From an uncultured Chloroflexia bacterium (lineage in GTDB: Bacteria > Chloroflexota > Limnocylindria > Limnocylindrales > CSP1-4), in assembly GCA_963748625.1 (NCBI GenBank), contig CAVVJT010000004.1, positions 480,001 through 544,000 of the forward strand: a stretch of DNA of 64,000 nt. Reading direction: 5' to 3'. Each line of letters starts with the position of its first letter. Position 1 is the stretch's first letter. A model generated the notes under the pieces. That model ran no database searches. It was given only the letters and a program-made list of their open reading frames with translations, and was not told the origin of the DNA. The translations under genes and the position numbers were made by a program. Positions 2,962 to 11,414 of the stretch are shown piece after piece.

Positions 2962-4812
2962 TCAATCGAGGCTGGCGGTGCGGACGTGGGCGTGCGCACC
3001 GATGAAGCCCACGTGGATCTTGCCCGTGGCCCCCTTCACATCGTCATGGAAGTACAGCCGCGGCGTGAGGCGGCCCCCGCTCTCCGCGATCTTGCAGTGG
3101 GCGAGCATCTCGATCTCGCCCGACGGGTCCACCGCGGTGTCCACCTTGAACACGCGGTCCGCCCGGTACTCCCGCAGCACCGTGTCGCTCTCGTACATCG
3201 CGAGGTTGCGCGTGGTGGCGGGCCAGGCGAAGGGATGGCCGGAGTTCTCGCACCACTCCCAGAACCCGCCGTGGCCGTTGGCGGCGTGGGCGTAGGCCTC
3301 GAGCGCCCGCAGCGCCCGCCACGTTGCGCGGCCCCACGCGATGTGGCTCGGGGTGTGGTCGATCTCGTCGATGAGCTCGGTGGCGCTCGGCGGAACCACG
3401 ACGTGGCAGAGGTGCTCGCGCGCGACCCGCACGGCGTCGCTTGGCTTCTCGATCGCGTCGATCGCGTCGTCGCCAACACCCTCGTCGGGGGTGGCGAGCT
3501 CCTGCTCGGCCTGCGCGCGGGCGATCCGGACAAGGTGGGCGTCCAGCTCCTCGATCACCTTGGCATACGTCGCCGGCCGGCCCGCCGCTGCTGGCAGGCG
3601 TGCAGCGACCGGCTCGAGGACCTCGCGCAGCTTGAGGCTGCTGGGCGGGAGTCCACCCACCACCAGGGCGTCGATCGTCTCGACCAGCTTGTCGGCGTCC
3701 CGCGCGGAGCTCCTGCCCTCGCGCAGCTGGCGGACGAGGTAGTTCAGCTGCTGGTACCGCTTGCGCAGGGCGGCATCACGAGCCGCTCGGTCCTTGAGGC
3801 GGGCCAGGCCGCGATGGACGGGCTCCATAACCTCCGCGAGGTGCCCGGGATCCAGCGGATCGTCGAGGCGCATGTGCCGCGGCACGAAGATCCTCTCGCC
3901 CTTGGTGACGGTGTTGAGCCATGCGAAGGCCGCCGCCTGCTCATCATCGGGCATGGTACGCAGGGCTCCGGTCGCGATCCGCAGGGCGGACTGGACGGCC
4001 GCGAGATCCTTCACGGCCTCGGCGCGCCGGAGGCGGTCCGCCGGCTCGTAGTGGTGCAGCAGGACGATCATCTCGCAGCAGTCCGCGAGCGCATCGAGGC
4101 ACTCGGCGAAGGTGGTGACGGCATCCGCGTCCGGGTGCAGGAGGTCGGTCATCCACACCGCGGCCCCCTCCGAGCGCGCACGGTGGACGTGGCTCTCGTC
4201 AAGCGGACGCCCGGACCGGGCACGCTCCGCCACATCCCGGGCGACGCTGGCGCGCAGGCGGGCGCGGGTGACGATGCCGGGCAGGACGGCATCGGGATCA
4301 CCGGGCTCGTCGATGCGCCCGGGCGGCTGCTCGAGCGCGGCGATCGCCTCCGCGCCGGTCCCGCCGAACAAGGCTTCGACCATGGAGCCGCGCTCGGAGG
4401 CCTGGATCTCGCGCATCGCCCCCTCGACGAGCGAGAGGAACGTGGAGCGGTCCATCGGCACCGACTCGCGATCGGTCCGGCGGCGCATGGGCGCCTCGTC
4501 GGGCTGGCCGTCGGGCTGGCGGTCCGGCTCCGCGGGTGTGGCCTCGGCCCCGAGAACGTCGACCGTCCCCTCGCCCTCCTCGGGCGTGAGCAAACCCAGG
4601 ACCTGGTTCTCGGGCAGCGGGACGATCGCCTGGGCGACCTCCTGGGCGACCTCGAGCACAAGCTCGGCAGCCGCGGACTGGCGGTCGAGCGCCTCCACGA
4701 TGCCGCGGGCCAGCACCTCGAGGCCGGGCCGGAGTGCCTCATCCGCGAGGGCGAGCTCCACCAGGCGCTCGAGGGCACGGCCGATCGCCACCTGGCGCTC
4801 GAGCTCGCTCAT
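2962..4812 (-). CDS. Hypothetical 616-aa protein, helical N-part, C-terminal RelE/BECR-like putative nuclease domain
   Basis: Long ORF with normal codon usage; C-terminus ESDTV..RVFKVDTAVDPSGEIEMLAHCKI..PRLYFHDD..TGKIHVGFIGAH; stop 13 nt before helicase ATG. Confidence 0.75.
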   Translation of the reverse strand: MSELERQVAIGRALERLVELALADEALRPGLEVLARGIVEALDRQSAAAELVLEVAQEVAQAIVPLPENQVLGLLTPEEGEGTVDVLGAEATPAEPDRQPDGQPDEAPMRRRTDRESVPMDRSTFLSLVEGAMREIQASERGSMVEALFGGTGAEAIAALEQPPGRIDEPGDPDAVLPGIVTRARLRASVARDVAERARSGRPLDESHVHRARSEGAAVWMTDLLHPDADAVTTFAECLDALADCCEMIVLLHHYEPADRLRRAEAVKDLAAVQSALRIATGALRTMPDDEQAAAFAWLNTVTKGERIFVPRHMRLDDPLDPGHLAEVMEPVHRGLARLKDRAARDAALRKRYQQLNYLVRQLREGRSSARDADKLVETIDALVVGGLPPSSLKLREVLEPVAARLPAAAGRPATYAKVIEELDAHLVRIARAQAEQELATPDEGVGDDAIDAIEKPSDAVRVAREHLCHVVVPPSATELIDEIDHTPSHIAWGRATWRALRALEAYAHAANGHGGFWEWCENSGHPFAWPATTRNLAMYESDTVLREYRADRVFKVDTAVDPSGEIEMLAHCKIAESGGRLTPRLYFHDDVKGATGKIHVGFIGAHAHVRTASLD

Positions 4813-4976: not shown

Positions 4977-6050
4977 ATGTTCTGGCCCTGCCGTGAGATC
5001 GGTCCGAACGGGGAGCTTTGCGCCCTGGATGCCGGGCACGAGGGCCAGCACATGCCGAGACCCGCGGCGGTCGCCCCGCCGCCGGTCGCCCCAGCGCCGG
5101 TCGCCCCGCCGCCATCGGTTGCCCCTCCGCCGGCGGCCCCGCCGCCGCCTGCGTACCAGGCGCCCCAGCCCCCCGCGTTCCCCGTGGCCGGTGCCGTGAC
5201 GGGCACGCCATGGAGCGGCCCGGCCCCAGCAGGCCGCGGCAAGGGTCCCATCGTGGCGATCGGCCTCGGACTCGTCGCTGTGCTCGTGATCGGTGTCGTC
5301 GGCTTCGCGATGCTGGGCGACAGCGCAGCAGGTGACGGGGATGCGTCGGCAGACCCATCCCGGCCCGCGGTGGCCCTGCCCGGGGCGTCGGCCCTGCCCG
5401 GCGCGTCGGCCCAGGCCGGGGCCAGCGAGGATCCCGGTACACCCGGCCCGGCGCCGTCCACCGCCGTCCGCCCTATCGGCCTGCCGGGGGCCACGGGCGC
5501 GCCGACCTCGACCGCCGCGCCCTCGACGCCGGCGCCTCTGTCGACCACGTCACCGGTGCTGGGCGCCACGGCGCCGCCGACGCCCGCCCCAACCCCCAAG
5601 CCCCTCGGGTTCGGCACGCTGTCCTACTCGGGCTCGGCCTGCTTCGAGGTGGACTGGAAGGATGCGAAGGGCCGCCAGATCTCCGGTGCCGAGGCACGCT
5701 ACGCGATCACCGTCAAGAACAAGACCGGCGCCCGGACCCGCAACATCTGGATCGGCGTCCAGACGACGGACCAGTTCACCACCGACCCGCTCATCTCGTC
5801 GGCAAGCTGGAGCAAGCGGCCCAAGACGCTGGCGGACCAGACGACCCTCATCATCGCCGGGCCGCGGCTCGACACTGGCTCGACCCGGCTCAAGTGGCGC
5901 GTCTTCTACCAGACCCCGATCGACGTCCACACGCAGATCTGGATCGCACAGGGCCCCAATCCCTCGAAGGGCACCATGACCCTCGAGGAGATCAAGGCTG
6001 CCTCACCATTCGTGTGGGACGTCAAGACCAACGTGAAGGTCTGCTACTGA
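4977..6050 (+). CDS. Membrane-anchored protein: N-terminal Cys2His2-like motif, Pro-rich linker, TM, beta-rich ectodomain
   Basis: RBS gaggagg upstream; CREIGPNGELCALDAGHEGQH; TM IVAIGLGLVAVLVIGVVGFAML. Confidence 0.75.
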   Translation: MFWPCREIGPNGELCALDAGHEGQHMPRPAAVAPPPVAPAPVAPPPSVAPPPAAPPPPAYQAPQPPAFPVAGAVTGTPWSGPAPAGRGKGPIVAIGLGLVAVLVIGVVGFAMLGDSAAGDGDASADPSRPAVALPGASALPGASAQAGASEDPGTPGPAPSTAVRPIGLPGATGAPTSTAAPSTPAPLSTTSPVLGATAPPTPAPTPKPLGFGTLSYSGSACFEVDWKDAKGRQISGAEARYAITVKNKTGARTRNIWIGVQTTDQFTTDPLISSASWSKRPKTLADQTTLIIAGPRLDTGSTRLKWRVFYQTPIDVHTQIWIAQGPNPSKGTMTLEEIKAASPFVWDVKTNVKVCY

Positions 6051-6837: not shown

Positions 6838-7494
6838 TCAGATCCGGGTGTGGATGAAGGTGGTGAACGGATCACCGAGTGCGTGCAGGCGGGTGATGCG
6901 GATGTCCTGGCGCGGGTTGAGGGCGCTGATGACGTAGCCCCTGCCGATGTAGATGGCGGCGTGGCGGCCGTTCCCGTAGATCACGACATCGCCGATCTGC
7001 GGGTTGCGCCGGCTGGTCAGCCCGTGCAGGCGGCCCCAGTACAGCATCCCGCGGGCGCTGTGCCCGCCGCCGATCCTCCTGCCGACGCCAGCCTTGTTGT
7101 ATGCGTAGCGGACGAGTCCGGAGCAGTCGAAGGCATTCGGGCCCACCGCACCGCTCACGTACCGGTCCCACCGCTGGCGCAGGGCGATCTTCTTGACGAT
7201 GCTGCCGCGGTCGACCGGCCTGGGGGCGACGACGGCTGAAGTGGACAGGGCCGTCGTGGCGCTGGGCGCCGGGGTCGCGCTGGGCGCGGGTGTGGCCGTG
7301 GCTGCCGGACTCGCCGACGGATCAGCGGTCGGGGCAGGCGACTCGGACGGGGCCGGAGTCTGCGACGGCGACGGCGACTCGGACGGGGCTGGAGTCGGGT
7401 CGGTTGCTGTGACAGGTGCAGCGCCGGCACCGATGCCGGCGAGCGCGATGGTGGTGGCGAGGCCAATGGCCACAATGCCGTTTGTTACCCGCAA
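6838..7494 (-). CDS. Secreted NlpC/P60 (C40) cell-wall peptidase with Pro/Ser/Thr linker
   Basis: TTG start after agagagg RBS; signal peptide; GPNAFDCSGLV, GDVVIYGNGRHAAIYIG. Confidence 0.9.
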   Translation of the reverse strand: MRVTNGIVAIGLATTIALAGIGAGAAPVTATDPTPAPSESPSPSQTPAPSESPAPTADPSASPAATATPAPSATPAPSATTALSTSAVVAPRPVDRGSIVKKIALRQRWDRYVSGAVGPNAFDCSGLVRYAYNKAGVGRRIGGGHSARGMLYWGRLHGLTSRRNPQIGDVVIYGNGRHAAIYIGRGYVISALNPRQDIRITRLHALGDPFTTFIHTRI

Positions 7495-7569
7495 GTTGTT
7501 CCTCTCTACCCGGACATGGCGAGATGACGGCCATGGCGATGGGACAGGCCGGCCCGGACAGGAGGTGGG

Positions 7570-7685
7570 AAGCACGTCCAGTCCCCCGACGGAGACGCGC
7601 AGGAACGATCGACAGCTTGGCCGACCGCACGGCAGGAAGCCCTGCCGGGCTGGCGATATGAAGCTGGAATCCCTGACGTGTGCTT
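7570..7685 (-). ncRNA. Candidate structured 5' leader of the NlpC/P60 gene (family not identified)
   Basis: Nested helices CACGUC/GACGUG, CAGGGAU/GUUCCUG, CAGCUU/AAGCUG, CGGCAGG/CCUGCCG, GUCUCC/GGGGAC, downstream of extended -10 TGGTACGGT (7707-7699). Confidence 0.45.
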
Positions 7686-7851
7686 GGTTGCGGCGCGTAC
7701 CGTACCAGCGATCCGCGGATCGTGCGAGGTCGGTGCAGACCCGGGTCACCGCGATCCGCAGATCCGGTGACCGCCAGACCTGCGGCTCCTAGTGTCCCGA
7801 TTCGCTGGTCGCTGGCGGCGTGCGGACCGCCGCTCCGGGTCCTGTCTCCGT

Positions 7852-8122
7852 CCGGGTCCTGGCGCCGTCCGGCGGCGCGCCGGACGGCCACACCGTGCGG
7901 CCGGAGCGCTCGATGCGCGGCTGGTGCGCAGGTCGTGCCCTCGGGACCCTGGCGGAGCGCACGGGCGGAGCCCGGGGCGCACATCCCGCGACGTCACCGC
8001 TCCGTGTGCGCGCCGGGCGCGCACGGCAGCAGCCGTCGTGGGCGACGCCCGGTGATGCCGCTTCCGATCAGCGGCACGGGAACGGAGGGGTATCCGCCAG
8101 CCATTGGCGGCACGCGACACTA
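7852..8122. repeat. Dispersed structured intergenic element, copy 1
   Basis: 7852-8073 aligns without gaps to 49062-49283 (30 mismatches in 222 by hand count); short distal block tggcggcacg.gacact also shared. Confidence 0.9.
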
Positions 8123-9091
8123 GTCGACCTGGATCGACTCGACGATCCCGCCCAAGGCCTCCACGTTCGCGTCGTACTCGTCTCCGGCCACGCCGACCGT
8201 CTCGAGCACCAGCGTGCCCTGGTCGCCGCGGTCGATCACCACGACGACCTGGAGGACGCCCTTCTCGTAGAACCCCTCGCCCGTGTTCTCCAGCTCCCAG
8301 ACCGACGCATTCCGGTCGCCAAACGTGCCCGACTCGCTCTGCAGGACCGTGTACACCGTGGCCGTCTCGAAGTCGCCAGCCACCTCGGAGAACGGGCGTG
8401 GGTCCTCGTAGACGAGCACTGCGACAGGGGGCAGCTCGGTCTGCGGCTCGATGACGATCGGGTCGGGATCGAACAGCATGCAGGCGAAGGCAGGGTCGTC
8501 CTCGACAGTGTGCCAACCCTGGGGGTAGGTCACCGTGATGCCTGCCAGGTCCGAACGGCACACCTGGCCTGCGGGCGCGTCCGACGGGGCCTCGGTCGGC
8601 ACCTCGAACGCCGTGGGAGTCGGGGTCGGAACGATGGGCGCGAACGTGACGATGGCGGTTGTCGGCGCCGTGGTCGGCGAGGCCCCGGGCGTCGTGGCCG
8701 GGCCATCCGTCGCCCGGGCGGATGCCACCGCGACCGCGCTGGGTGACGCCGGACCACCGCCTCGGAACGGGTTGGCAACCACGAACGCCAGGGCGACGAC
8801 CGCGACGACGGCCACGATGAGCCCGACAACGACGAGCGGGCCACGGCCCCGACCATCGGCGGGCTGCGGAGGAGGACTCCACCCCTGCGCCGGGACATGC
8901 ACCGGCGGAGGAGCAGGTTGGAGTGACACCGGAGGCGGACCCCAGCCCGGGCCGCCGACCGGAGGTGCAGGCGGTGGGGCGGCCGGTGCAGGCGCGATGG
9001 GTCCCACCGGCGCCCCGCAGACCTCGCAGAACCGCTGGCCCGCGATCGTGGCGGAGTGGCCGTTGGCACAGGCGTAGCCGGGTCCTGTCAT
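8120..9091 (-). CDS. Zinc-ribbon / Pro-rich / TM protein with PsbP-like ectodomain
   Basis: CANGH..QRFCEVCGAP; TM PLVVVGLIVAVVAVVALAFVV; GITVTYPQGW motif. Confidence 0.75.
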   Translation of the reverse strand: MTGPGYACANGHSATIAGQRFCEVCGAPVGPIAPAPAAPPPAPPVGGPGWGPPPVSLQPAPPPVHVPAQGWSPPPQPADGRGRGPLVVVGLIVAVVAVVALAFVVANPFRGGGPASPSAVAVASARATDGPATTPGASPTTAPTTAIVTFAPIVPTPTPTAFEVPTEAPSDAPAGQVCRSDLAGITVTYPQGWHTVEDDPAFACMLFDPDPIVIEPQTELPPVAVLVYEDPRPFSEVAGDFETATVYTVLQSESGTFGDRNASVWELENTGEGFYEKGVLQVVVVIDRGDQGTLVLETVGVAGDEYDANVEALGGIVESIQVD

Positions 9092-9113
9092 CTGGATCTC
9101 CAGCGGACTGGCG

Positions 9114-11414
9114 TCATGGCTCGATCACGTGGGTGCAGAGCGTCCAGTCCAAACTCTGCTCCTTGTAGACCGGCAGAACCATCTCGGCGCGTCCAAGCTC
9201 GACCGGGCTCGCGCCACCGGTGTCCGAGACGATCACGGTGATCCTCGCGTTCCGTTCCGCATCCCATGCATGCGCCGCCGACGACTGCAACGGAGCCGTG
9301 AACGGGGCCGCGTACGACTCAGCACGCCCTGGCCCCTCGCCGAAGTCCCATGCGAACCCAACCTGCTTGACCGTGGGCGGCACTCCGGACGCAATCGCCC
9401 GGTAGGTGTACTCGATGTCCACGAGCGGGCAGGCTTCGGTCACCGGCTCGAAAGTCAGCTTCACGCCCCCGCGGGTGACGCTGATGCGCACGAAGTCCAC
9501 GTAGGCCCACGTGTTGCCCTTCTTGCCGTACACGAGGAACCCAAGGGCGTTCTCACCGGGCTCGAGGTCGACCGTCTGCTGCCAGGCCCAACCCCCGAGC
9601 GGCCGGGTGCCGGTCCCCCGGAAGACCAGGATCTGCGTCGCGCCGCCATCGGCCAGCTTGGTCACCTGGACCTTCAGCTTCGCGTCGGGGGTCACGTGGC
9701 CGTCCTTCAGCTCGACCCATGTGTCATTGCCCGCCTCGTCCTTGCCCGCCACGGTCCAGAGCTCGAAGTACGGGTAGGCCCTGGTGCCGGCCTCGTTCCG
9801 CTCGAACTCGGCCCAGCGGTCTGCCACCCAGGCCTCGGTCTTGGACGCAACCCACGGAACGTAGGCGAAGCGCGTGTAGGACTTCGTGCCGGCCTGCCCG
9901 ATGGAGGTCGCGCTGTCGCCCGAGCTGTACGGGGCGAGCTTGCCCGTGGCACCGTCGTACGGGATCGAGCGCAGCCTGCCCGGGTAGTTGGGATCCGCGA
10001 CGTACAGGCGGGTGGGCGTGACCCGGTACACGATCATCGTGTGACCGCCATCACCAGGGGCTGGGCTGATCCGGATCATCTGGGGCGAGCCGCCCAGCGC
10101 GATGGCCGCCCGGAAGCCGGCGATCGTCGCGCGCGCGTCAGCCGCGTCCCACTGCGGATCGCGGATGGCGAGATAGGCGGTCGTGTCGGCAATCCCGGCG
10201 GCGTGCACGCTTCCGACATAGCGGTAGCCGTCGGAGTCGTCCTGCCAGAACGTCGGCGTCTTCGCCGGAGCGCCGTTGTTGTCGTACAGCCCGTACAGGG
10301 GCGACGCCCCCGCCCCCAGCCGCTGGCGCAGGTAGTACCAGATCTCGGTGATCGACTGGCCCTCGCACTGGCCGTCGGGCGCCACATACGAGCCATAGTT
10401 CGCGAACTGCCAGTCGTCCCGTCCCGGCCGGAAGCCCGAGTCGACGGTGGCCGGGATCCGCGTGAAGTCGACAAGCGCCCCGAAGATGTCCGAGAAGTGG
10501 GGCGCGAGGACAGTGAGCGTTCCATCGGCGGCCGCCACCGTCGTCAGGGGGGAGAGGTCGCCCGTGGCCGGATCGCGGGAGAAGGCCATCGGCAGCGTCT
10601 CAGCAGGCAGCGGGTCCGGCATGGGCATGGCAAGCACCACGCGCGCGGGTGACGCGAGATCGGCATCGCCTGTCGAGACCGAGAACAGCGGCGTCATCGG
10701 TGTGATCGCACCGCCGTAGGCGTCGGGTGCCGCGAGGCCGTCGATGGGAACGGGTGTCACGGTGAAGGTCGTATCCCCTGTGACAGCGCCCGGCCCCAGC
10801 GTGATCGAGATCCCGGGAGCCTCGACGACGCCCCCTCCCGGGCCCACCGCCACCGACGTGGGACTGCCGGGCGGGCCCAGCGCGACGTTGCCGCGCAGTG
10901 GTTCCGTGGTCTCGGGGGCTGGAACAAGCTCGTCCTCCGGGGCGGGCAGCTCGCCGGGCAGGGGCCCCGGTGTCCCCTCGGCGTCATCGCCTGGTCCCGG
11001 CGTCCGTTCTCCGGTCCAGAGCGGACCTGCGGCCTGGGGTGTGGCGACCGGCGGCGTTGGCGCGGCGGCCTGGCCCGAGGCACCGGGGCCGCCAGACGGC
11101 GTGGCCTGCGCCACGCCCTGTCCAGCGTCGCTCCCAACACCGGACCGGTCCAGCAGGAGGTACGCGCCGCCAATGCCGCCGGCGAGCAGGACGACGATGG
11201 CGAGCAGGATGGCCAGACGGCCACCCCGACCACCGGCTGGGGAGACCGGTGCCACGGCTGGTCCCGGTGCCACGGCTGGTCCCGGTGCCACGGCTGGTCC
11301 CGGTGCCGCTGCCGGCCGCTGGGGCAGGGCTTGGCCGCAGGAGCCGCAGTAGGCCGCCGACGGTCCGACGCGGCCGCCGCACCACGGACAGAACGTCCGG
11401 CCCCCGCCACCCAT
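9114..11414 (-). CDS. Zinc-ribbon / TM protein with ZU5-like HFS region, papain-like Cys-His-Asp domain and PKD-like C-terminus
   Basis: FCPWCGG..YCGSCG; TM LAILLAIVVLLAGGIGGAYLLL; LTVLAPHFS; DWQFANYGS..GQCEG, GGHTMIVY, LYVADPNYP; FAWDFGEG. Start codon inferred. Confidence 0.75.
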   Translation of the reverse strand: MGGGGRTFCPWCGGRVGPSAAYCGSCGQALPQRPAAAPGPAVAPGPAVAPGPAVAPVSPAGGRGGRLAILLAIVVLLAGGIGGAYLLLDRSGVGSDAGQGVAQATPSGGPGASGQAAAPTPPVATPQAAGPLWTGERTPGPGDDAEGTPGPLPGELPAPEDELVPAPETTEPLRGNVALGPPGSPTSVAVGPGGGVVEAPGISITLGPGAVTGDTTFTVTPVPIDGLAAPDAYGGAITPMTPLFSVSTGDADLASPARVVLAMPMPDPLPAETLPMAFSRDPATGDLSPLTTVAAADGTLTVLAPHFSDIFGALVDFTRIPATVDSGFRPGRDDWQFANYGSYVAPDGQCEGQSITEIWYYLRQRLGAGASPLYGLYDNNGAPAKTPTFWQDDSDGYRYVGSVHAAGIADTTAYLAIRDPQWDAADARATIAGFRAAIALGGSPQMIRISPAPGDGGHTMIVYRVTPTRLYVADPNYPGRLRSIPYDGATGKLAPYSSGDSATSIGQAGTKSYTRFAYVPWVASKTEAWVADRWAEFERNEAGTRAYPYFELWTVAGKDEAGNDTWVELKDGHVTPDAKLKVQVTKLADGGATQILVFRGTGTRPLGGWAWQQTVDLEPGENALGFLVYGKKGNTWAYVDFVRISVTRGGVKLTFEPVTEACPLVDIEYTYRAIASGVPPTVKQVGFAWDFGEGPGRAESYAAPFTAPLQSSAAHAWDAERNARITVIVSDTGGASPVELGRAEMVLPVYKEQSLDWTLCTHVIEP

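Follow-up and report, generated by a model that had tools for sequence, protein, structure and literature searches.

The gene at positions 9114-11414 on the minus strand of the window (the whole stretch of DNA that was analysed, 64,000 nucleotides of contig CAVVJT010000004.1 from an uncultured Chloroflexia bacterium) encodes a predicted surface protein that, on balance, we favour as a membrane-anchored protein in which a self-cutting ZU5/MAIN-type domain holds a sheddable papain-fold peptidase by a single β-strand. Two predicted domains carry this reading: a β-sandwich with a His-Phe-Ser (HFS) motif, which is likely to cut its own chain between Phe307 and Ser308, and directly behind it a Cys-His-Asp domain whose place in the papain clan (clan CA) is secure. 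A chain cut in this way would leave the enzyme attached to the cell non-covalently and so open to shedding. An earlier reading of the same DNA, made from the letters alone (the sequence-only reading), had described a cytoplasmic zinc ribbon, a transmembrane (TM) helix, a Pro-rich stalk, a β-rich region ending in LTVLAP-HFS, a Cys-His-Asp series and a PKD-like tail; all of these are present, and the motifs lie where it placed them (HFS at 10499-10491, Cys350 at 10367-10365, His458 at 10043-10041 and Asp474 at 9995-9993). Its layout did not contain a second β-sandwich (about residues 548-648), which lies between the papain-fold and PKD-like domains.

The gene is a single open frame of 766 amino acids (P0001) with an ATG start codon at 11414 and GGAGGG 7 nt 5' of it, and the homolog P0004 shares the start position. 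An AlphaFold2 model of residues 170-766, built from 145 sequences, has a mean predicted local distance difference test (pLDDT) of 94.5 and a predicted template modelling score (pTM) of 0.87; secondary structure was assigned to it with DSSP. The features, all on the minus strand, are as follows.

9114..11414, minus strand: coding sequence of a predicted type II membrane protein of 766 amino acids (open frame and homologs)
11334..11390, minus strand: cytoplasmic zinc ribbon of the CxxC-CxxC type, residues 9-27, not family-wide (Pfam PF13240, Zn_Ribbon_1, E=0.0032, below the cut-off; in 36 of 183 anchored homologs)
11151..11213, minus strand: predicted single TM helix or signal anchor, residues 68-88, with Arg on the N-terminal side (hydropathy 2.5, sequence)
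10887..11150, minus strand: Pro/Gly/Ala-rich stalk, residues 89-176 (sequence)
10461..10886, minus strand: predicted ZU5/GAIN-B (MAIN-like) β-sandwich, residues 177-318 (VIA structure matches, ankyrin-3 profile match, Atlas naming in homolog P0002)
10491..10499, minus strand: His306-Phe307-Ser308, predicted cut between Phe307 and Ser308, in the loop between strands 299-304 and 309-316 (DSSP, GPR110 register, Ser/Thr/Cys interchange)
9780..10451, minus strand: predicted papain-fold Cys-His-Asp domain of no named family, residues 322-545 (model pLDDT 95.3, structure matches)
10365..10367, minus strand: Cys350, predicted nucleophile and first residue of the central helix (232 of 233 rows; helix from model residue 181)
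10041..10043, minus strand: His458, predicted general base and first residue of a strand (233 of 233 rows; DSSP)
9993..9995, minus strand: Asp474 of a DPN motif, predicted third triad residue (246 of 246 rows; His and Asp-Pro in register with C39 ComA, weak, E about 1)
9471..9773, minus strand: predicted Ig/FnIII-like β-sandwich, about residues 548-648, family-conserved (DSSP; Ig-type VIA matches over model residues 380-586; conserved L-x-x-G-x-N and YVDF-x-R)
9150..9467, minus strand: predicted PKD-like domain, about residues 650-755 (model residues 477-582 on PKD structure 4xed, Z 9.3, root-mean-square deviation (rmsd) 2.5, 95 residues aligned; Pfam PKD in homologs)

Database profiles say little about this protein: a Pfam scan of the 766 residues returned solely the sub-threshold zinc ribbon and left the PKD-like tail unmatched, NCBIfam returned no match, and a search of the PDB with the single sequence gave only noise. 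Scans for a promoter and a terminator around the gene found none, and Rfam found no match between window positions 4000 and 16000.

The HFS domain belongs, on the evidence of its model, to the ZU5/GAIN-B/MAIN fold superfamily. The best five VIA matches of about residues 180-318 are all ZU5 or GAIN domains (Z 10.6-11.7, rmsd 2.5-3.3, 118-137 residues aligned), namely ankyrin ZU5 (Z 11.7, 11.6 and 10.6) and CD97 GAIN (Z 11.2 and 11.0), the best pairs being ankyrin-B 6m3q (Z 11.7, rmsd 3.3, 129 aligned) and CD97 (Z 11.2, rmsd 2.8, 123 aligned). They are followed by BAI3 (9.7), CARD8 (9.5), CELSR1 (9.4), GPR110 (8.7), GPR126 (8.4), the FIIND domain of NLRP1 (8.3) and UNC5b (8.3). By sequence, a profile of the ZU5 region alone matches ankyrin-3 (E=2.7e-4), and in an Atlas structure search the aligned part of homolog P0002 receives the name PF00791 (ZU5), with feature scores below 0.9. 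The Pfam ZU5 hidden Markov model (HMM; PF00791) gave no match to P0001 at E≤1, and a tblastn search of plasmids with the ZU5 domain returned only spurious matches to short-chain dehydrogenases/reductases.

Residues Pro305-Ser308 form the loop immediately before the last strand of the modelled sandwich, the position of the H-x-S/T(/C) motif in the ZU5/GAIN-B/MAIN superfamily. The aligned ranges to GPR110 (8hc0), GPR126 and the rat NLRP1 FIIND stop in each case at Phe307, model residue 138 (a statement about range ends), and the 8hc0 chain itself ends at residue 566, the residue preceding the mapped cut of GPR110. That cut was assigned to His565-Leu566/Thr567, with an N-terminal fragment of residues 1-566 (PMC5075789).

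Conservation agrees with this placement. Among 246 aligned sequences the motif reads HFS in 209, HFT in 10, HFC in 9 and RFS in 5, with six other forms and seven gaps, so that 228 of the 246 carry HF[S/T/C]; Phe307, His306 and Ser308 rank first, third and fifth in conservation among residues 184-321. Replacements at position 308 are Thr (11), Cys (9), Ala (2) and Pro (1). For the 233 rows that cover more than 80% of the core (13 rows were dropped), substitutions were counted as clades on a tree: Cys makes up 5 of the 17 at Ser308 and 5 of the 302 at the other eight columns with a Ser majority (Fisher p=5e-5), and Cys plus Thr 14 of 17 against 130 of 302 (p=0.002), clades being only roughly independent in both comparisons. 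In four clades His306 has become Arg, which in GAIN domains is also accepted as a general base (PMC10328401). The exchange of Ser for Thr or Cys with very rare Ala, together with the His/Arg pattern, suggests selection on chemistry, that is, for a nucleophile rather than for a small residue, and to judge from the alignment neither the HFS motif nor the Cys/His/Asp motifs are chance. By analogy with assayed relatives, self-cleavage at Phe307/Ser308 is thus likely.

The papain-like assignment of the sequence-only reading is borne out by conservation and by the predicted structure. Cys350, His458 and Asp474 are intact in 238 of the 246 sequences, and six of the eight misses end before the Cys. 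In the model the Cys opens the central helix, the His opens a strand and the Asp follows the next strand, which is the layout of papain. The domain modelled in isolation (pLDDT 95.3) matches SpeB (Z 9.1, rmsd 4.0, 166 aligned), staphopain C (8.9) and interpain A (8.7), and less closely BtaeB (8.3), the GP42 transglutaminase (7.6), IdeS (7.0), C39 domains (6.8) and phytochelatin synthase (6.5). By entry title nearly all 50 VIA matches are papain-clan proteins, and none stands out, the top Z values lying within 1 of each other. The nearest solved folds are thus SpeB/interpain and staphopain rather than C39 and C58, the families that the sequence-only reading had named for comparison, and no family is assignable: C10, C39, C47, C58 and Tox-PL yielded no Pfam, NCBIfam or PDB-profile match. 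Atlas neighbours of homolog P0002 (unnamed clusters, DUF8321/8322, Peptidase_C39_2 and Mac-1) all fall under the naming bar. The domain is very probably active, and it probably hydrolyses proteins rather than transferring acyl groups.

The two domains are constantly paired. ZU5 directly precedes the papain-fold domain in all 248 proteins (out of a set of 300) in which the papain start is intact and preceded by more than 150 residues, although this count is inflated, since most homologs came from a two-domain query; a genome search with the papain-fold domain only, as an unbiased check, found ZU5 adjacent in 11 of 11 matches. The gap between the domains is 2-5 residues in 222 of 238 proteins. 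Short proteins (n=62, 118-417 residues) with an intact domain start have either ZU5 sequence upstream or a start at or inside the domain boundary, and they therefore look like fragments. What surrounds this pair is more variable. The N-termini of 238 two-domain homologs were classed heuristically as lipobox (91), N-terminal hydrophobic segment (37), zinc ribbon plus TM (36), internal TM (19) and truncated or unclear (55), which leaves 183 homologs with an assignable anchor, all of them N-terminal; a C-terminal hydrophobic segment occurs in just 2 of 232. Other homologs have GYF_2 or DUF2510 N-termini, and the tails of 32 selected homologs carry Pfam PKD, VWA, Big_2, CARDB or PASTA domains. Zinc ribbon plus TM of the same pattern opens six proteins in this genome, five besides the one studied here. 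The constant unit is thus anchor, ZU5, peptidase and Ig, with the cytoplasmic part optional and the zinc ribbon an interchangeable N-terminal module outside the core mechanism.

Besides the inflated coupling count, several points weigh against a self-cutting peptidase carrier. Certain members have lost the motif and kept the triad (HFA, NFA, YLT, SFP), as has a paralog in the same genome (L001, MFP), so cleavage is not obligatory, and the ZU5 domains of ankyrin and UNC5 have the same fold and are not known to cleave. Z values of the papain-fold domain reach only 8-9, and Foldseek with the isolated domain gave no match at E≤1e-3. Distant relatives of the papain core that have no ZU5 occur in other Chloroflexota (L089, L090 and L091). 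In the MAIN study, moreover, 'nearly all', and not all, assayed domains were reported as cleaved (bioRxiv 10.64898/2026.05.12.724683).

For the favoured reading we propose the following course of events. The protein would be exported with its N-terminus inside and held by the predicted TM anchor, or by a lipid anchor in many homologs. On folding, His306 would activate Ser308 for an N-to-O acyl shift followed by hydrolysis, as in GAIN/MAIN chemistry, giving a membrane piece of ~29 kDa and a piece of ~50 kDa that begins at Ser308 and comprises the last strand, the peptidase, and the Ig and PKD domains. Strand 309-316 would remain in the sandwich and tether the enzyme non-covalently, as in MAIN and GAIN domains. 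In the weakest step, the PKD/Ig tail may bind a surface or substrate, and pulling or unfolding would then free the peptidase onto extracellular protein. The sequence-only reading had the protein released by self-cleavage; the cut is likely, but it would not by itself bring release, because GAIN and MAIN pieces are described as staying bound after the cut until force or unfolding separates them (bioRxiv 10.64898/2026.05.12.724683). Shedding is somewhat favoured as the purpose of the cut.

The readings that compete with this one differ in what they assign to the ZU5 domain and to the enzyme. ZU5 could be a self-cleaving prodomain that keeps the peptidase inactive while bound and switches it on when removed by force or degradation, as in NLRP1/CARD8. 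Alignments to SpeB (chain from 146) and staphopain C (chain from 1), which from their numbering we take to be the mature forms, begin at residues 319-321, just past the last ZU5 strand, so that ZU5 sits at the propeptide's place in the chain; the fixed linker length, the near-obligate pairing and the compact, confident four-domain model (pTM 0.87) fit such a role, as does the polarity of FIIND, from which a C-terminal effector is freed (PMC11760013). However, broken-motif paralogs keep an intact triad, the distant enzyme relatives manage without ZU5, and nothing in the analysis places ZU5 over the cleft or in contact with the active site (a complex prediction of residues 177-318 with 322-545 scored 0.18 and 0.22, the mark being 0.32, and was counted neither way); we regard a prodomain as unlikely. 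A plain structural spacer, or an incidental cut with the enzyme acting while covalently tethered, would accommodate the loss of the motif in about 5 of 239 non-gap members and in L001, and Phe307 is a core residue that would be conserved for folding regardless. That position 308 is held to Ser/Thr/Cys, Ala being very rare, and that His alternates with Arg argue instead for selection on chemistry, and assayed MAIN HFS domains do cleave (bioRxiv 10.64898/2026.05.12.724683), which makes a spacer decidedly unlikely. That the papain-fold domain is an acyltransferase (a transglutaminase or transpeptidase) cross-linking or modifying surface proteins is improbable: in a whole-model Foldseek search, where multi-domain Ig and transglutaminase entries prevailed, animal transglutaminases came first (E about 1e-8, TM-score only 0.16), which we read as shared domain order only, both having a sandwich, a core and two barrels in the same order. 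The Phytophthora GP42 transglutaminase (Z 7.6) and phytochelatin synthase (Z 6.5) also match the isolated domain, but proteases score above them, the H...DP motif is C39-like and P0001 has no Pfam transglutaminase match.

Two further readings concern the protein's partners. The sequence-only reading had raised the possibility of inward signalling through the zinc ribbon; in an RsgI-like version, loss of the outer piece would lead to intramembrane proteolysis of the membrane piece and free the ribbon as a cytoplasmic signal. An N-terminal fragment would indeed stay in the membrane, as in RsgI (PMC10328401), and cytoplasmic modules recur (zinc ribbon plus TM in 36 homologs, GYF_2 or DUF2510 in others). 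Yet 91 of the 183 anchored homologs are predicted lipoproteins without a cytoplasmic part, no sigma factor or regulator recurs across 81 loci, and the same N-terminal module opens unrelated proteins in this genome. With lipid anchors predicted in roughly half of the anchored family members and no conserved neighbour gene, signalling of this kind is unsupported as the function of the family, and we hold it to be very improbable. Slighter still are the prospects of a contact-dependent polymorphic toxin whose papain-fold domain attacks neighbouring cells. ZU5 is described as releasing toxins, papain-like ones included, in RHS/SpvB systems (PMC3482391), the C-terminal domain of the Bacteroides type VI secretion system effector BtaeB matches the enzyme (Z 8.3) and the distribution is patchy; against this, the enzyme domain is constant and internal rather than a variable C-terminal cassette, Pfam found no RHS or SpvB on P0001 and 32 selected homologs, and no small downstream gene that could confer immunity recurs in the 81 loci (open reading frames of at least 90 residues, E≤1e-12).

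The family thus resembles several known systems without coinciding with any. Microbial HFS domains of the MAIN type, with Bacillus subtilis YfkN as prototype, were reported to be cut between Phe and Ser, the pieces staying associated but releasable (Brogan and Rudner, bioRxiv 10.64898/2026.05.12.724683). Compared by published description, YfkN and the present family share the GAIN-B-like sandwich, the HFS in the turn before the last strand, a surface protein with enzyme and adhesion domains, and proposed shedding. 'Virtually all' MAIN proteins were described as running from signal peptide through freely shuffled cargo to MAIN and a C-terminal anchor, mostly in Bacillota (bioRxiv 10.64898/2026.05.12.724683). 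Here that order is not found: the anchor (TM or lipid) is N-terminal in the 183 classifiable homologs, the cargo follows the cut, would take the last strand along and is fixed, namely a papain-fold enzyme, with most members in uncultured Chloroflexota. In its main text the MAIN paper mentions peptidase, papain, ZU5, lipoprotein or Chloroflex 0 times, its supplementary tables lying outside this count.

Zhang et al. (2012) united ZU5, GPS and Nup98 in one superfamily, placed ZU5 in an N-terminal position in SpvB/RHS toxins, some with papain-like tips (Tox-PL-2, Tox-PL3, Tox-NLPC/P60), and also noted bacterial surface proteins in which ZU5 accompanies enzymes and adhesins (PMC3482391). As described there, those proteins share with ours a ZU5 domain N-terminal to the released cargo; they differ in that the toxins are large SpvB/RHS proteins with C-terminal toxin tips, whereas here the papain fold is fused straight to ZU5, RHS is absent and Pfam gives no Tox-PL match. 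Of the hallmarks of polymorphic toxins, neither an RHS/SpvB stalk nor a variable C-terminal toxin was found in P0001 and 32 selected homologs, nor was a recurring adjacent immunity gene among open reading frames of at least 90 residues in the 81 loci. No title or abstract describing this ZU5-papain family was found in the literature; the supplements of the MAIN paper and of Zhang et al. (Additional File 1), which could list it, lie outside that search.

Eukaryotic GAIN/GPS domains (CD97, GPR110, BAI3) and FIIND domains (NLRP1, CARD8) share the fold (Z 8.3-11.2) and the cut-site register, and FIIND also the polarity, with the effector C-terminal to the cut (PMC11760013); unlike the proteins that carry them, ours is bacterial and extracellular, and has no seven-transmembrane domain, GAIN-A helices or UPA-CARD. 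SpeB/streptopain, interpain A, staphopain and C39 share the core fold and the Cys-His-Asp order (Z 8.7-9.1; C39 6.8), but at 8-14% identity, an rmsd of about 4 Å and no HMM match, and ZU5 stands where their propeptides do. The RsgI anti-sigma factors, which contain a SEAL domain, share the type II topology, a self-cleaving extracellular domain and an N-terminal piece kept in the membrane, although they are described as having another fold and Asn-Pro chemistry (PMC10328401); neither of the RsgI-type hallmarks, a conserved cytoplasmic effector domain and a linked sigma factor, is found here, and the present protein has no anti-sigma domain. Self-cutting microbial HFS domains (ZU5, MAIN) are thus already known; what differs here from the assayed domains is the reversed mounting and a fixed, unnamed papain-like enzyme at the propeptide's place.

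The family is large and scattered. Among 7997 scored candidates 215 are homologs at E≤1e-3, and representatives of 50% clusters number 1187 at E≤1e-3 and 479 at 1e-30, some of which may match one domain only. With each species represented by one genome, a scan turned up 382 stretches that encode a relative; the best 78 of the 382 loci are mostly from Chloroflexota (Limnocylindrales, Dehalococcoidia, Anaerolineae), and also from Actinomycetota, Myxococcales, Thermotogae, Bipolaricaulota, Verrucomicrobiota and Clostridiaceae, and one partial member is archaeal. Peptidoglycan was considered as a substrate for the whole family and is thought unlikely, since many carriers are Dehalococcoidia, which are not known to have peptidoglycan. 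Close to home the gene is accessory: a search of 121 genomes from the order found it in 6, none of 8 genomes from the genus had it, a scan of the phylum gave strong matches in 4 of 401 genomes (its own included) and three more weak ones, and a DNA search of 18 same-genus genomes gave, among the matches listed, one 204-base match of 69% identity inside the gene and none spanning it. Apart from synteny at the level of lineages, no neighbour gene recurs across the 81 loci; six related loci have Kelch-like repeat proteins nearby.

The same genome holds two paralogs and a fourth ZU5 domain, this last on a lipoprotein with unrelated cargo. One paralog (L001, 6752-8797, minus strand; G000:C10) is a lipoprotein with intact Cys/His/Asp and MFP where HFS would stand, which makes it a natural control for non-cleavage; the other (L002, ~7330-9318, plus strand; G000:C10) has a zinc-ribbon-like N-terminus, a TM helix, the HFS and the triad. 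In the lipoprotein at L081 (6045-7892, minus strand; G000:C3) a ZU5-like domain ending in HLS precedes an unrelated, largely helical domain without a Pfam match, so the inverted module carries other cargo too. Elsewhere in Chloroflexota, HFS occurs within a 4421-residue DUF11-repeat adhesin (L104), and HFT directly before an SpvB-type domain (L106). At L009 (6964-8974; also G090) a tandem second copy has its ZU5 split between two frames, possibly as a frameshifted pseudogene or an assembly error. The ZU5-free relatives L089-L091 share the pattern F-x-P...N-Y-G, G-H-C-E-G, G-H-A, D-N-N (hhalign probability 96%), have a core without a Pfam name and represent a wider unnamed papain-like family.

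Downstream in the window, 23 bp away on the same strand, the gene at 8120-9091 encodes a protein with a zinc-ribbon-like N-terminus, a TM helix, a Pro/Thr stalk and a small extracellular domain without a Pfam match; it is probably co-transcribed with 9114-11414, and it does not stand beside homologs of the latter in the 81 loci. A protein with a Cys-rich N-terminus, a Pro-rich part, a TM helix and an extracellular part, of unassigned family, is encoded at 4977-6050 (plus strand), and a secreted NlpC/P60 protein (Pfam, E=8e-12) at 6838-7749 (minus strand), so that surface proteins are clustered in this region. At 7789-8123 a non-coding repeat of ~335 bp with terminal inverted repeats CTAGTGTC...GACACTAG overlaps the stop codon of 8120-9091; about 20 copies with 80-97% identity occur in this genome, only 43-base traces in one of the 18 same-genus genomes among the matches listed, and there is no Rfam match. 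The repeat looks like a miniature inverted-repeat transposable element (MITE) or a repetitive extragenic palindromic (REP)-like element.

These findings describe a large papain-fold family (1187 cluster representatives) that is without a Pfam or NCBIfam model and lies mostly in uncultured Chloroflexota. The 2026 demonstration of microbial self-cleavage of the GAIN type covers only C-terminally anchored proteins. This family has the reverse polarity and, in its enzyme, a readout of its own; a single ZU5-peptidase unit of ~370 residues would address self-cutting, whether the pieces stay together and the effect on enzyme activity, and natural Ser, Thr, Cys and dead nucleophile variants are on hand for comparison. 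A bolder version, which we consider doubtful, would have the inverted GAIN-like domain stand in for a propeptide as a self-cut safety pin, in which a pull on the PKD/Ig tail both detaches and switches on the papain-like enzyme, as a mechanically gated protease widespread in bacteria. If true, such a protease would be a prokaryotic counterpart of the logic of NLRP1/CARD8, in which the freed effector is an enzyme.

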